A stretch of DNA of 64,000 nt from Dictyostelium discoideum. Lineage: Eukaryota. Where the stretch lies: the NCBI GenBank assembly GCA_000004695.1, contig CM000150.2:2464001-2528000 (forward strand), given 5' to 3'. Of the stretch, positions 7,481-41,723 are shown piece by piece (positions within the stretch are counted from its first letter, which is position 1; each line of letters begins with the position of its first letter). The notes beneath the pieces were generated by a model, which searched no databases, was not told the origin of the DNA, and saw only the letters and a program-made list of their open reading frames with translations. Both the position numbers and the translations under genes were made by a program.

Positions 7481-10033
<2,553 letters not shown>

Positions 10034-36579: not shown

Positions 36580-37383
36580 TTTTCTATTTATCTTTTTTTT
36601 TTTTTTTTTTTTTTTTCTAAAAATTTTTAATTATAATTATAATTATAATTGTATTGAGTGTTGTTGGGTGTTTAATAATTTTTTTTTTTTAATTTTTTTT
36701 TTTTAAATTAAAAATTATTTATTTATTAATTGTTTTTTTTTTTTTTTAAAAAAAATTTGTTTGTGGTTATATTAATTTTTTATTTGTGAAAAAAAATTAA
36801 AATTTAAAAAATAATTATGTAATTATTTATCATTTATTGATGTCCAAATGATAATTATTTTTATTTATTATAAAATAAAAATTATACGTATAACCTTATT
36901 AATGATCGAATTTAAATCATTCACAATTTTATTTTTCTTTATAATTCTTTTTTTTTTTTTCTATTTTTTATAATTCAAAACAAAAAAAAAAAAAAAAAAA
37001 AAAATATAGATTAAGCAAACCAATGTAGATAATTTTTTATTGTATTTTTTATTTTTTTAATTTCTTTTTTTAATTTCTTTTTTTTTTTTAATTCAAAAGC
37101 CGATTTAAAAAAATATTGTAATTTTTTTATTTGGGCCAACAAAAATACTTTTTTTGTTTCAAGGTTTTTTTTTTTGAATTGGACAACGCAATTTTTTTTA
37201 ATTGGTGTATAACACAATTGCAGGGGCTAAATATAACAAATCTCATCAATGCCAGGATGTGTAAAATTTAAATTTTTTTTCCTATTATTATTAAAAATCA
37301 ATTTTTTTTTTTTGAATTGGATAACGCAATTATTATTTGCTTCTCCTTGAGATGCTAGATCTCATTTTATTTTTTTTTTTTTT

Positions 37384-37628
37384 TTACAGGGTCTTTTTGA
37401 TTAAAACATCTTTTTTGTCCAAACTTTTTTCTAAATCTTTTTTTATTTTATCGTCTGGTTCGTGATTGATGTTTATGACGTATTTGAATTGTTTTTTTTT
37501 TTTTAATTGAGTTTTATCCACAATTTCGCTTATTTTTTGTAGGCATTTGTGTTGCTTAATATTTGTGGTGTTGTTTGTGATTTTCATTTTATTTTCTTTC
37601 TATCTTTTTTATTTTTCTGATTAACTTG

Positions 37629-37686
<58 letters not shown>

Positions 37687-39392
37687 TTATAGAAAGTACT
37701 GAGTGAATTATTGTATTTTTTGAGATGTTTAGGAAGTTCTATTGCGGGTGTTGATGATGATTTGTGACACCCCTTGTCCTGTTTTATCAATTGGTGCGTG
37801 GTGTGTTATTTTGTTTTTATATTGTTGATTTATTGAGTAAATTTTATTTGTTTTTATATTTGTTTCAGTTAGAAGTGCTGCGTCCAGCTTGTTGTTGTCT
37901 AAAACGGTGTTTATTATGCTGGCAGATTGGATGGTGTTGGATCCTTGGACGTTCCAAACACCTATTCTTATTGTGTTTTTCTTTATAGTTTTATTTGGGG
38001 TAGATTTTTATCTACCTTTTGAAGTTTCTGGTTTATTTTGTCTTCTAACTGATCTTTACTTTGTTCGTTGTGTTGTTGGTCTTGTGTGTTTGTGGGGTTT
38101 TTTGATTTATTGATTTGTTTTAGAATTTCCTTGTTGAAGTTGTCTATATCTTCATCCATTTTTGTTTTTATGCTTTTTTGTCCATATTCACCCAATTTTG
38201 GTTTGACTGGTGTTTTGTTGGTCTTGTTTGTTTTGTCTTGTTGTTTCTTTTTTGGTGTGTTTAACAATTTACTTGGTGAATCGATAATTTTCGATGGTGT
38301 ACCATAGGTTGGGCTGAAACTCATGATATGTTTTATTGGAGAGGAGAAGAACCATTGATTTGAAGGGATTGAAAGTGGGAATTCTATTTTTCTTATTGCA
38401 TCAGTGTTTGGGCTGGTGAAGTCGAAGATATCATTTGCCTCTCTAAGTTTTTCTTCCGTTGTTAGTCCCTTTGTTTCGCCGTGTTGTTTTATTGGTGTAT
38501 TGTATGGAGATGGTGGTTCGATAGGTTTTTCTGATTTTGTTTTAATTTCTTGATTGTTTATCGATTGTGTATTGATCTCATTCTCTATTCTTGTTAGTTC
38601 ATCTACGTTTTCTAGTGATGCTTCTATTACCTTTTGAGCTGTATCATCTAGGGCCATAAATGTTTTATCATTAGATGAGGATGTGATTGGTGGGATAATG
38701 ATTGTTCTTTTTCCTTGTTTTGGTATTTGTTCTGATGTAGATTGTGGTTGTTGTTCATCTGATTGTTTTTTATTTTTGTTTTCTTCTTGATTTTCTGGTA
38801 ATGAGGTTTGATCTCTCCATCCTTTGTTGGAGTGTCCAATTAATGTTAGATTGTCTAGTTCAATGATAGTGTCAAATTCTTCTACGACTCTTTTCACTGT
38901 TTTGATAATTAGAGTTTCGCCTTTAATTTCTGATTTAATTAGTTTACATCCTTCATTTTCTATTACCCATTCTATTTCTGTGAGTGATTTATACCAATCA
39001 AAATCTGTATACATATTTTTTGGTCTTATAGTGGTTATAAATTGTCCTTTTAATTCTGCATCAAACATATTTACAAAATAGATTACTGTACTAATACTGT
39101 CTGTGAGAATTTTGAATGTATTATTACTTTTGATTAAAACATCTTTTTTGTCCAAACTTTTTTCTAAATCTTTTTTTATTTTATCGTCTGGTTCGTGATT
39201 GATGTTTATGACGTATTTGAATTGTTTTTTTTTTAATTGAGTTTTATCCACAATTTCGCTTATTTTTTGTAGGCATTTGTGTTGCTTAATATTTGTGGTG
39301 TTGTTTGTGATTTTCATTTTATTTTCTTTCTATCTTTTTTATTTTTCTTTAAAAAGTTAAAAATCTGGAAATTTTCTAATTAACTTGGTTCC

Positions 39393-39458
<66 letters not shown>

Positions 39459-39460
39459 TC
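37384..39460 (-). mobile_element. tRNA-gene-associated non-LTR retroelement (TRE5-like). A full ORF1 copy sits head-to-head about 120-260 bp upstream of tRNA-Lys, followed in tandem by a 5'-region/ORF1 fragment (37384-37625). Each unit is bounded by a ~55-nt poly(T) tract on the plus strand
   Basis: A ~240-bp block including the ORF1 start (MKITNNTTNIKQHKCLQKISEIVDKTQLKK...) occurs twice, at 39115-39355 and 37384-37625. Each is followed on the plus strand by CTGATTAACTTGG/CCAGG and T(53-56) at 37632-37684 and 39403-39458. The element lies on the strand opposite to the tRNA and upstream of it, which is the TRE5 arrangement in Dictyostelium. I recognise the class, not the specific family. Confidence 0.5.
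37983..39317 (-). CDS. Retroelement ORF1 protein (444 aa)
   Basis: An intact 444-aa ORF whose 5' end is duplicated at 37384-37587 (the listed 67-aa ORF starts identically). It is basic and Lys-rich with a Q/N/T-rich C-terminus. Its position and orientation relative to the tRNA gene fit a TRE5-type ORF1. Confidence 0.5.
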   Translation of the reverse strand: MKITNNTTNIKQHKCLQKISEIVDKTQLKKKQFKYVININHEPDDKIKKDLEKSLDKKDVLIKSNNTFKILTDSISTVIYFVNMFDAELKGQFITTIRPKNMYTDFDWYKSLTEIEWVIENEGCKLIKSEIKGETLIIKTVKRVVEEFDTIIELDNLTLIGHSNKGWRDQTSLPENQEENKNKKQSDEQQPQSTSEQIPKQGKRTIIIPPITSSSNDKTFMALDDTAQKVIEASLENVDELTRIENEINTQSINNQEIKTKSEKPIEPPSPYNTPIKQHGETKGLTTEEKLREANDIFDFTSPNTDAIRKIEFPLSIPSNQWFFSSPIKHIMSFSPTYGTPSKIIDSPSKLLNTPKKKQQDKTNKTNKTPVKPKLGEYGQKSIKTKMDEDIDNFNKEILKQINKSKNPTNTQDQQHNEQSKDQLEDKINQKLQKVDKNLPQIKL

Positions 39461-39576
39461 TTTTTTATATGAAAAATGAAATAATCAAAAAAAGAGATTG
39501 TTGTTGTTGTTTGTTTTTTTCGATCTCTAATTAATTAATGACCTAATCTAGTAATTAAAATTTATTTATAACAAAT

Positions 39577-39650
39577 GCCCAGATAGCTCAGTCGGTAGAG
39601 CGCAAGGCTTTTAACCTTGTGGTCGGGGGTTCGAGCCCCCCTTTGGGCGA
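39577..39650 (+). tRNA. tRNA-Lys (anticodon UUU)
   Basis: GCCCAGATAGCTCAGTCGGTAGAGCGCAAGGCTTTTAACCTTGTGGTCGGGGGTTCGAGCCCCCCTTTGGGCG. It has a 7-bp acceptor stem, an A box (TAGCTCAGTCGG), the anticodon stem-loop CAAGG-CTTTTAA-CCTTG, and a B box (GGTTCGAGCC). There is one extra C between the T stem and the acceptor 3' strand compared with a canonical 73-nt fold, so the exact end is +/-1. Confidence 0.75.
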
Positions 39651-39666
39651 ATTTTAAAATAATCAA

Positions 39667-39932
39667 CTTTAGATCAAGTGTTCGACTCTGTATATGAAAT
39701 TAAAAAAATGGTCAACTATCCATTTATATTTTAACCGACCAATATTTTCATGCTTGGAGAGATCACTTTTTTTTTTTTAAAATAAAAAAATAGATTAATC
39801 ATTTATCCCTGGAAATAAGCAATAATTAATAGTTTTAATTATATTTATGAGTTTTTAATTTTAAAATATAAATGGTTAGCTGACCATTTTTTAAAGACGT
39901 TTTTACGGATTCGAACACTTGATCTAAAGATA
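39667..39932. repeat. Extra B-box (ex-B) element downstream of the tRNA gene, plus an inverted copy 240 bp away
   Basis: CTTTAGATCAAGTGTTCGACTCTGT at 39667-39691, about 20 bp 3' of the tRNA, contains GTTCGA. Its reverse complement, CTTTAGATCAAGTGTTCGAATCCGT, lies at 39908-39932 and has a better B-box consensus (GTTCGAATCC). Between them is a near-palindrome, AAATGGTTAGCTGACCATTT, at 39871-39890. Confidence 0.6.
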
Positions 39933-40109
39933 TATTTATTTAAATAAATTTTTAAATATAACTTTCAAAGAAATTACATTATTGGTTTTAAATTTAGAAT
40001 TTAAATATATCTTTTTTCATGAAAAATCCAATTCAAAAAAAAATCTTTTTTCATGAAAAAAAATTATTATTTGATTGTAAATTTTGATTTTGATTTAAAA
40101 AATATTGAT

Positions 40110-41723
40110 TTACTTCTTTAAAGATTGGATGATGAGATGAATCAATTGAATATTCAGTGAAAATGAATCGACAACATTGATTTGTCCACTATCTAAAGAA
40201 TTGATAACGATTGATATTAATAGATTCATATTATTTAATAAAACATTAACCATTGTAATATTTAAATTTTTAAAATAATTGGAAATCTTTAAATGACCAC
40301 ATTGTGATGTAGAATAATTTAAAATGTTTGAAAGTAGGTCAATAACATCACCACTAATACCACTAGTATCACCACTATTACCATATCTAAATAATAAAAA
40401 AGATAAAGTTACATCTAATAAAAGTAAATCACCTCTTTTTGAAATTTCAAATGCCAAATATTTGCAATTAAAAAATTTCTTATTTTTAAAAATTTTAATG
40501 ATTTGATTTTTATCATTATTGTCACAAGTATTATCGCAATTGTTAAATAAATTTGAGTTCAACTTTTTCCCATTATAATATTCCATTAAAATTAAATCTG
40601 AATTATCAACTAAACATCTTTTTGGTTCAATTTCTAAATACTTATTCCCACATATATTATAAACGTTGTTTATTAATTGATTTAATTATAGTATCTGAAT
40701 TAATTTTGCCTATTTTTTAAGAATATTGGTTTGGTAATTTAAAAACACAATTTTAAAAATATAAATTTCTTACCAATTGTGACCATTTATTTAAATAAAT
40801 AACTCCATTCCATATATAAGGATCACCATCATTCTTTTTTTTAACCAAAATATATTTATTCATTAGACCATCCAATTATTTAAAAGTTTTGATAGTTTCT
40901 TTTGCCAAAATTTTACTCTCAATTACTTCCAACTTAATGACTCCTGTTTTTTTCTCGTCAACCTTTTTTTTGAGGTCTTCAGAATAGAAAGAGGCTGATG
41001 ATACCCTTTTTGCTCCAGAACCTGGAAAAACTGTATTAATGGTTTGAATATTTAAATTACCATTAATAATATACTTTGGAATAATATGAAGTTCTTCTTT
41101 TGACAAAGTTATACAAATTGAATGCTGCGCGTGTTGATTATCTAAAGTCCCTGTACCGTAATTATAAAGAGGATGATATAAGGTTCTGGAGATTTTGGAA
41201 CACTGTGAATTACATGAATTCCCCCTTCTTCATTCCAAATAAAAAATCCTTTTGCATGTGCCTTTTTTAACACATGAAACATATGAAAAAAAAAGAATTA
41301 ACAACAAATTATAATAAAAAAAAAATAAAAATAAAAATTTAAAATTAACACATACACTATTATCTCCACGGGTTGATCATTATAGGTCAAACTATTATAT
41401 ATAGTTTTACCAGAGCTATTTGGATAACTCTGTTTGTATGTTGATGCAATTGGGTTTGGCTCATGCGGATTCCTAATATTATAATAAGCTAATTCATTAA
41501 TCACCCTATTTAATTCATTATCAGTATAAATAGCACCTCTACTGTGACTCAATTGTTCTAAAACCCACCATTCAACATTCTTTTCTATTTTAACTCCATC
41601 TTTATCTATAAACACCTGACTTTTTGTATAAACATTTTTTGTTGTTATACATTTTGGAGGAACACAATAAATTTGTGATATTAATAAAAATAAATATAGA
41701 ACTATTATATATTTATTTTTCAT
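40110..41723 (-). pseudogene. DNase II-like paralog, copy A. It keeps the signal-peptide exon (41298..41723) and the second exon (carrying one frameshift), but the third exon is deleted or diverged
   Basis: Exon 1 (MKNKYIIVLYLFLLISQIYCVPPKCITTKNVYTKSQVFIDKDGVKIEKNVEWWVLEQLSHSRGAIYTDN...) is paralogous to 55336..55734. Exon 2 (about 40800-41270) codes AHAKGFFIWNEEGGIHVIHSVPKSPE, then a 1-nt frameshift relative to copy B, then ...HAQHSICITLSKEELHIIPKY.... Downstream of the conserved intron (about 40715-40800) the sequence no longer codes DNase II motifs. The 158-aa ORF 40110..40586 is unrelated and low-complexity. Confidence 0.55.

Follow-up and report, generated by a model that had tools for sequence, protein, structure and literature searches.

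A tRNA-Lys(UUU)-associated retrotransposon of Dictyostelium discoideum, very probably a TRE5-A.2 copy, lacks a target-site duplication

Results

The window analyzed here is a 64,000-bp stretch of the Dictyostelium discoideum genome (NCBI GenBank assembly GCA_000004695.1, contig CM000150.2, positions 2,464,001 to 2,528,000 of the forward strand). It holds a plus-strand tRNA-Lys(UUU) gene, predicted by both ARAGORN and Rfam, and upstream of it on the minus strand an intact open reading frame (ORF) of 444 aa, the ORF1 of a retroelement. An earlier reading made from the sequence alone (hereafter the sequence-only reading) had described this head-to-head, TRE5-like geometry with a minus-strand ORF1 about 260 bp from the tRNA, and it holds: the ATG is 259 bp away from tRNA-Lys. 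The element's 5′ end at 39527 and the first tRNA nucleotide at 39577 are 49 bp apart on opposite strands, close to the roughly 48 bp that had been expected. TRE5 elements integrate 40-54 bp upstream of tRNA genes (PMC5911963), and both the distance and the opposite orientation fit this published range and the strict orientation. We identify the element, with a probability of roughly 95%, as TRE5-A.2, the known non-autonomous, ORF2-deleted derivative of the L1-clade non-long terminal repeat (non-LTR) retrotransposon TRE5-A, located at tRNA-Lys(UUU).

The element was mapped by blastn of the window sequence against ten loci. Nine of them (L001-L009) are fetched loci encoding the ORF1 protein and the tenth (L010) is the same locus in an independent assembly. 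A divergent D. discoideum strain, D. citrinum and D. firmibasis contributed three further loci (L011, L012 and L013, respectively). Dozens of D. discoideum AX4 proteins, all of which are named 'hypothetical protein' at NCBI, share 99-100% identity with the ORF1, and the exact 444-aa protein is encoded on 11 contigs. An oppositely oriented tRNA gene stands upstream of the ORF1 copy at 8/9 fetched loci, the tRNAs being those for His, Val, Thr, Ser, Glu/Ala and Gly. L002 and L003 contain a second ORF1 copy, behind which stands an ORF of 1047 aa that includes an RVT_1 domain. Since it is multicopy, has a tRNA gene upstream at eight of the nine loci and is followed by an RVT_1 ORF in two of them, the 444-aa ORF is the ORF1 of a tRNA-associated non-LTR retrotransposon and no host gene.

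The family name was obtained via the TRE5-A ORF1 primers for quantitative PCR from PMC4559204. Primer Rep-109 matches exactly at 38845-38873, while none of 100 shuffled sequences matched, and primer Rep-108 has a match at 39187-39212 that contains a 1-nt indel, and a second one in the repeat of this segment described below. The TRE5-A ORF2 primers have no match in the window; they match only the reverse transcriptase (RT) ORFs of L002 and L003. The length of 444 aa is consistent with the published 51-kDa ORF1 protein. A Pfam search of ORF1 returned no domain, in agreement with the literature, in which TRE5-A ORF1 is without homology to other ORF1 proteins.

The module order of the element follows the published descriptions. 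TRE5-A.1 is built as AB-ORF1/ORF2-BC, with an A-module of ~200 bp that acts as promoter, a B-module of 290 bp and a C-module of 134-137 bp; TRE5-A.2 is built as AB-ORF1-BC, with a large ORF2 deletion and a 72-bp BC deletion that leaves the 3′-terminal 87 bp of C (PMC3159450). In the window, the A-module is represented by a partial unit that matches the start of every 199-bp unit in L001-L009 at 100% (period 199 in Tandem Repeats Finder). Including this unit and the following poly(A), the 5′ untranslated region (UTR) is 210 nt long and reaches 39527. The 5′ B-module and the 3′ B-module of the full-length elements in L002 and L003 share 98.3% identity over 292 bp. Window positions 39396-37746 align to L002 10539-12190 and positions 37746-37685 to L002 15324-15385, so that L002 12191-15323, 3133 bp, are missing from the window copy. 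The 3′ B-module, which starts with CCCAAGTTAATCAGA, is the same in all compared TRE5-A.2 copies. Alignment of the C-module to the TRE5-A.1 copies leaves a gap of ~70-72 bp, with 80-81 nt of C left vs 87 published. The ORF2 and BC deletions of the window copy thus match the published TRE5-A.2 definition. The last 54 nt of the C-module are predicted to fold into hairpins (-11.3 kcal/mol, z=-3.1, 0/200 shuffles as stable), a computed structure that is consistent with the C-module hairpin published as essential for retrotransposition (PMC3159450). By blastn, the 1712-bp core of the element (39396-37685) recurs in the nine other loci and in L010 with 99.9-100% identity. All compared copies also have in common the A stub, the two poly(A) tracts inside the element, the 3′ B-module in its deleted form and the C terminus. 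The sequence-only reading had left the family uncertain and allowed for an undescribed variant; the exact Rep-109 match together with this layout identifies TRE5-A.2 instead.

Table 1 Features of the TRE5-A.2 locus in the window and of the compared loci.
Feature	Position	Strand	Basis or remark
tRNA-Lys(UUU) gene	39577..39649	+	Integration landmark; Rfam RF00005, 72.6 bits; ARAGORN 39576-39650
Spacer, element 5′ end to tRNA nucleotide 1, 49 bp	39528..39576	.	Sequence and 5′-junction comparison
Complete TRE5-A.2 including A12 tail, 2226 bp (very probable)	37302..39527	-	blastn vs L001-L010
Partial A-module, 72 nt	39456..39527	-	Extra G plus first 71 nt of the 199-bp A unit (AGATCGAAAAAAACAAAC...GACTT)
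Poly(A) between A- and B-modules, 59 nt	39397..39455	-	First poly(T) of the sequence-only reading
5′ B-module, 290 nt	39107..39396	-	Contains the ORF1 start at 39317
TRE5-A ORF1, 444 aa, intact	37983..39317	-	99-100% identity to D. discoideum proteins; published primer
Last 62 bp of ORF2	37685..37746	-	Kept after the 3133-bp ORF2 deletion; junction at 37746
Internal poly(A) ahead of the 3′ B-module, 54 nt	37631..37684	-	Second poly(T) of the sequence-only reading
3′ B-module, A.2 form	37395..37630	-	~38-bp deletion in the leader part; 'tandem partial copy' of the sequence-only reading
C-module remnant, 81 nt	37314..37394	-	Ends ...TTGCGTTATCCAATTC; aligned to full C-modules of L002/L003
Oligo(A) tail, 12 nt	37302..37313	-	Other copies have 8-27 nt here
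Older diverged, 5′-truncated, C-module-like TRE5 remnant	37165..37260	-	...ATGAGAT...TTGCGTTGTCCAATTC; upper boundary approximate; A11 at 37165-37175
Stacked TRE5-A sites	L002 9990-10031, 15857-15883; L003 7429-11150; L006 9988-10260; L007 9982-10910; L008 9981-10530		
Synteny-break regions	Window 37281-37301, 39528-39543; L011 7963-8400; L012 8892-9000; L013 7240-7330		

Some observations weigh against the assignment to TRE5-A.2. Published primers and a published structural description, not a comparison with a repeat library, support the family name. The window is also without any complete 199-bp A-module, so that the 'A' of AB-ORF1-BC is only partial. Lastly, no target-site duplication (TSD) of 10-16 bp was found at the window copy, as its 5′ flank (...GGTCATTAATTAATTA) and its 3′ flank (TTGATTTTTAATAATAATAGG) share no duplication.

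The short A-module has parallels in the other copies. A partial A unit stands before the poly(A) in every copy, and other copies add complete 199-bp units ahead of it. The number of these complete units is 0 in the window and L010, 1 in L003, L004, L005 and L009, 2 in L002, 8 in L001 and L007 and 21 in L006. The long tandem arrays, with 8, 8 and 21 complete units, span L001 6226-7909, L007 6217-7880 and L006 3619-7880 (recent D. discoideum assembly). At 39527 the element begins with G-AGATCGAAAAAAAC, and internal A-A junctions read TCAGATCG. GAGATCG is found at 6/10 element 5′ ends (window 39527, L002 10044, L003 1818, L005 7620, L006 3627 and L009 7611). At the five of these that lie outside the window G+AGATCG follows the TSD directly, and internal A-A junctions are C+AGATCG. 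As five other copies start with the same GAGATCG, the 5′ end of the window copy does not look like a random truncation. The shared G+AGATCG would fit a fixed transcription start and a G that is not templated, and this extra G could be derived from the cap. A copy with no complete A unit could have arisen by contraction of the array after integration or by copying of an RNA whose start lay in the terminal partial unit, and for want of a complete unit the window copy may be poorly transcribed.

TSDs of 10-16 bp are expected for TRE5-A (PMC9012585) and clean ones were found elsewhere (TTTTATTTATTAT in L001, TGGTTTCGTACATTC in L005, GTACGTTATTATCTA in L006 and TATATATAATTTTA in L007). Where elements are stacked at one tRNA gene, the same TSD follows each tail, for example in L003 with four occurrences of GTTTTGTAATT and in L002 with two of GATTAATCACCAAT. 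Judged from these junctions, repeated integrations re-use one nick site and re-duplicate one TSD. At the window copy, a search by local alignment and k-mers returned only the 10-mer ATTTGTTATA, which lies off the junction and was judged a chance match. The missing TSD does not stem from a misassembly, since L010 has the same junctions.

We traced synteny via the neighboring ESF1-like gene into L011, L012 and L013. In 3/3 of these it is a tRNA-Asn(GTT) gene that bounds the orthologous intergenic region, whereas in the window it is tRNA-Lys. Past tRNA-Asn, L011-L013 carry a gene of 1083-1261 aa; the window side has instead tRNA-Lys together with a DNase II and a TIG-domain gene. By tblastx, what lies upstream of tRNA-Asn in L011 has homologous sequence in L012 and L013 and no counterpart in the 64-kb window. 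L011 also carries a 5′-truncated TRE5-A 44 bp upstream of tRNA-Asn with the TSD TGATTTATTT, and the 3′ junction of this copy aligns with that of the window element.

Because the window copy has no TSD and lies exactly at the synteny break, with tRNA-Asn there and tRNA-Lys here, we lean towards reading it as the point where two TRE5-A insertions from different tRNA loci were joined by non-allelic recombination. An element would once have stood at tRNA-Asn in the AX4 ancestor and would have recombined with a TRE5-A at the tRNA-Lys locus, the outcome being a chimeric element with flanks from two different insertions. The reciprocal product (tRNA-Asn(GTT) with ...CAATCATGATTTATTT on the 5′ side and GGTCATTAATTAATTA after the tail) was not found among the loci compared. 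This absence would also suit an atypical integration at tRNA-Lys, by target-site deletion or by endonuclease-independent insertion at a break and with no recombination, as would the TSD-less non-LTR insertions known from other systems. We regard such an event as rather unlikely, as the 3′ junction falls at a flank point ~44 bp upstream of tRNA-Asn, a TRE5 target site, in three genomes, a coincidence that an atypical integration leaves unexplained unless an element was first at tRNA-Asn. With the missing TSD ascribed to recombination after integration, it was not counted against the assignment to TRE5-A.

A feature that had appeared anomalous is the repeated segment with its poly(T) tracts. As the sequence-only reading had observed, the segment with the ORF1 start recurs beside long T-runs: positions 37395-37618 and 39128-39348 are 94% identical over 224 bp (E=8e-99) and the homology runs on to the T-runs, T54 and T59. 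The first internal poly(A) measures 59 nt in the window, 31-42 nt elsewhere and 42 nt in L010; the second measures 54 nt in the window, 32-43 nt elsewhere and 34 nt in L010. For the same locus in two assemblies, the tracts at 39397-39455 and 37631-37684 correspond to L010 6412-6453 and 8166-8199 (59/54 vs 42/34 nt), a difference due either to genuine instability of the homopolymers or to an error in assembly or sequencing. Only the lengths of the tracts are unusual here, and homopolymer length is sensitive to assembly.

The sequence-only reading had taken the repeat for repeated targeting of the tRNA gene or an internal tandem duplication, the tracts for unusual and the ORF1 leader for only ~85 bp long. 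From these follows the alternative of an undescribed TRE5 variant with a ~85-bp leader and either a locus-specific tandem duplication or a second partial insertion at the tRNA. The repeat and the tracts are indeed real and the window copy is without a full A-module. However, each of the ten other copies, which lie at unrelated tRNA genes and have differing flanks, shows the same duplication and tracts (31-43 nt), and the duplication corresponds to the published one of the B-module (PMC3159450), of which the repeat is the 3′ copy. Its homology to the first B-module ends at 37395 and is followed by the C-module, where the earlier reading had it break off at 37384. A second independent non-LTR insertion would moreover be expected to be truncated at its 5′ and not its 3′ end. 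The short leader and the idea of an undescribed variant arose because the ORF1 start inside the B-module and the A-module past the poly(A) had gone unrecognized; the leader extends over the full 210-nt 5′ UTR. The multi-locus comparison refutes this alternative, which we consider highly improbable. Since L001-L009 and L010 all carry both tracts and the duplicated B-module, the duplicated segment and the poly(A) tracts are canonical TRE5-A structure and no sign of repeated targeting or of a new variant.

Least probable of all, and already refuted, is that the 444-aa ORF is a host gene that lies near the tRNA by chance: the empty Pfam result and the 'hypothetical protein' label on every copy would allow it, but the dozens of near-identical copies, the opposite-oriented tRNA genes upstream at eight of the nine fetched loci, the RT-containing ORF2 that follows in full-length copies and the match of the published TRE5-A ORF1 primers stand against it.

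Beyond the 3′ end of the element lies the trace of an older one. A 20-bp direct repeat had been noted before; the 20-mer is indeed present twice, at 37174-37193 and 37312-37331, a few bases away from the positions first given, and its two copies are two TRE5 termini. The copy at 37312-37331 is the terminus of the C-module (...AATTGCGTTATCCAATTC) running into the A12 tail, and the one at 37174-37193 is the terminus and A11 tail of a much more diverged C-like sequence. This remnant is found 138 bp beyond the young element. It was also considered as a full TRE5-A C-module, which was rejected because only the last ~22 nt and the ATGAGAT motif match. In L011, a diverged remnant that ends in an A15 tail stands at the orthologous position (8490-8575). 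Given this positional ortholog in a divergent strain, the remnant is an old 5′-truncated TRE5 insertion, of either TRE5-A or TRE5-C origin, that predates the strain split.

On the other side, directly downstream of tRNA-Lys, lies an inverted repeat (39653-39734 and 39861-39944, 80% over 86 bp), which L010 has as well. Both arms include a B-box-like motif (GTGTTCGACTC and GTGTTCGAATCC) resembling the external B boxes of Dictyostelium tRNA genes. Further along, a raw 158-aa ORF at 40110-40586 (minus strand) falls within a 419-aa DNase II gene that is annotated across 40110-41723 in L010 (4144-5757). A homologue search with the ORF at 40113-40586 gave no hits, and exact-protein look-ups of the neighboring raw ORFs, and of three proteins in addition, gave no recorded entry. 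The true exons of DNase II must use other frames and introns than the raw ORFs at 40110-40586 and 41298-41723 (both minus strand).

Discussion

TRE5-A, or DRE, has been characterized since 1989-1992. The element in the window is thus already known, and each module of this copy agrees with the published TRE5-A.2 blueprint. With TRE5-A.2 (formerly DRE) it shares the ORF1, the AB-ORF1-BC order with duplicated B, both deletions, the C terminus with its hairpin, the oligo(A) and the position relative to the tRNA gene; it differs in having the 72-nt A unit only, where others have 1-21 complete units ahead, in the lack of a TSD and in longer poly(A) tracts. The autonomous TRE5-A.1 (5.6-5.8 kb; L002 10032-15857 and L003 1798-7429) has the same A-, B- and C-modules, ORF1 and target preference, but keeps the 1047-aa APE/RT/ZF ORF2, a C-module of ~135 bp and an undeleted 3′ B-module. 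TRE5-B and TRE5-C, which we compared by description, belong to the same clade and likewise target the region upstream of tRNA genes. Both are without a 3′ B-module and TRE5-B is also without a C-module (PMC3159450), whereas the window element has both.

Going by the literature, RNA polymerase II would transcribe such a copy from the A-module. Its 51-kDa ORF1 protein would bind subunits of TFIIIB, which would lead to integration ~50 bp upstream of tRNA genes. The ORF2 protein (endonuclease, RT and zinc finger) would be provided in trans by TRE5-A.1, and is proposed to recognize the C-module hairpin and to perform target-primed reverse transcription. The mobilization of TRE5-A.2 in trans by the TRE5-A.1 ORF2 protein and the binding of ORF1 protein to TFIIIB have been described (PMC3159450, PMC5391098, PMC5911963), and the ORF1 protein has a cis preference according to the literature.

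Comparable arrangements exist outside Dictyostelium. The mammalian HAL1, an ORF1-only derivative of a long interspersed element (LINE), is similarly non-autonomous, keeps ORF1 and depends on an ORF2 protein supplied in trans. The monomer arrays in the 5′ UTR of mouse L1 resemble the A-module arrays as tandem promoter units of variable copy number at the 5′ end. HAL1 and mouse L1 differ in that sequences and host are unrelated and that they do not target tRNA genes.

As a discovery the element carries little weight, and its practical value is that of a correction. A repeated ORF1 start behind a 30-60-nt poly(A), seen as poly(T) on the other strand, downstream of ORF1 is, in Dictyostelium, the signature of TRE5-A and no anomaly. 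The sole point that deserves follow-up is the missing TSD at the synteny breakpoint. If the recombination we favor took place, the window copy would mark a chromosomal rearrangement that a retrotransposon mediated and that only the AX4/laboratory lineage underwent.

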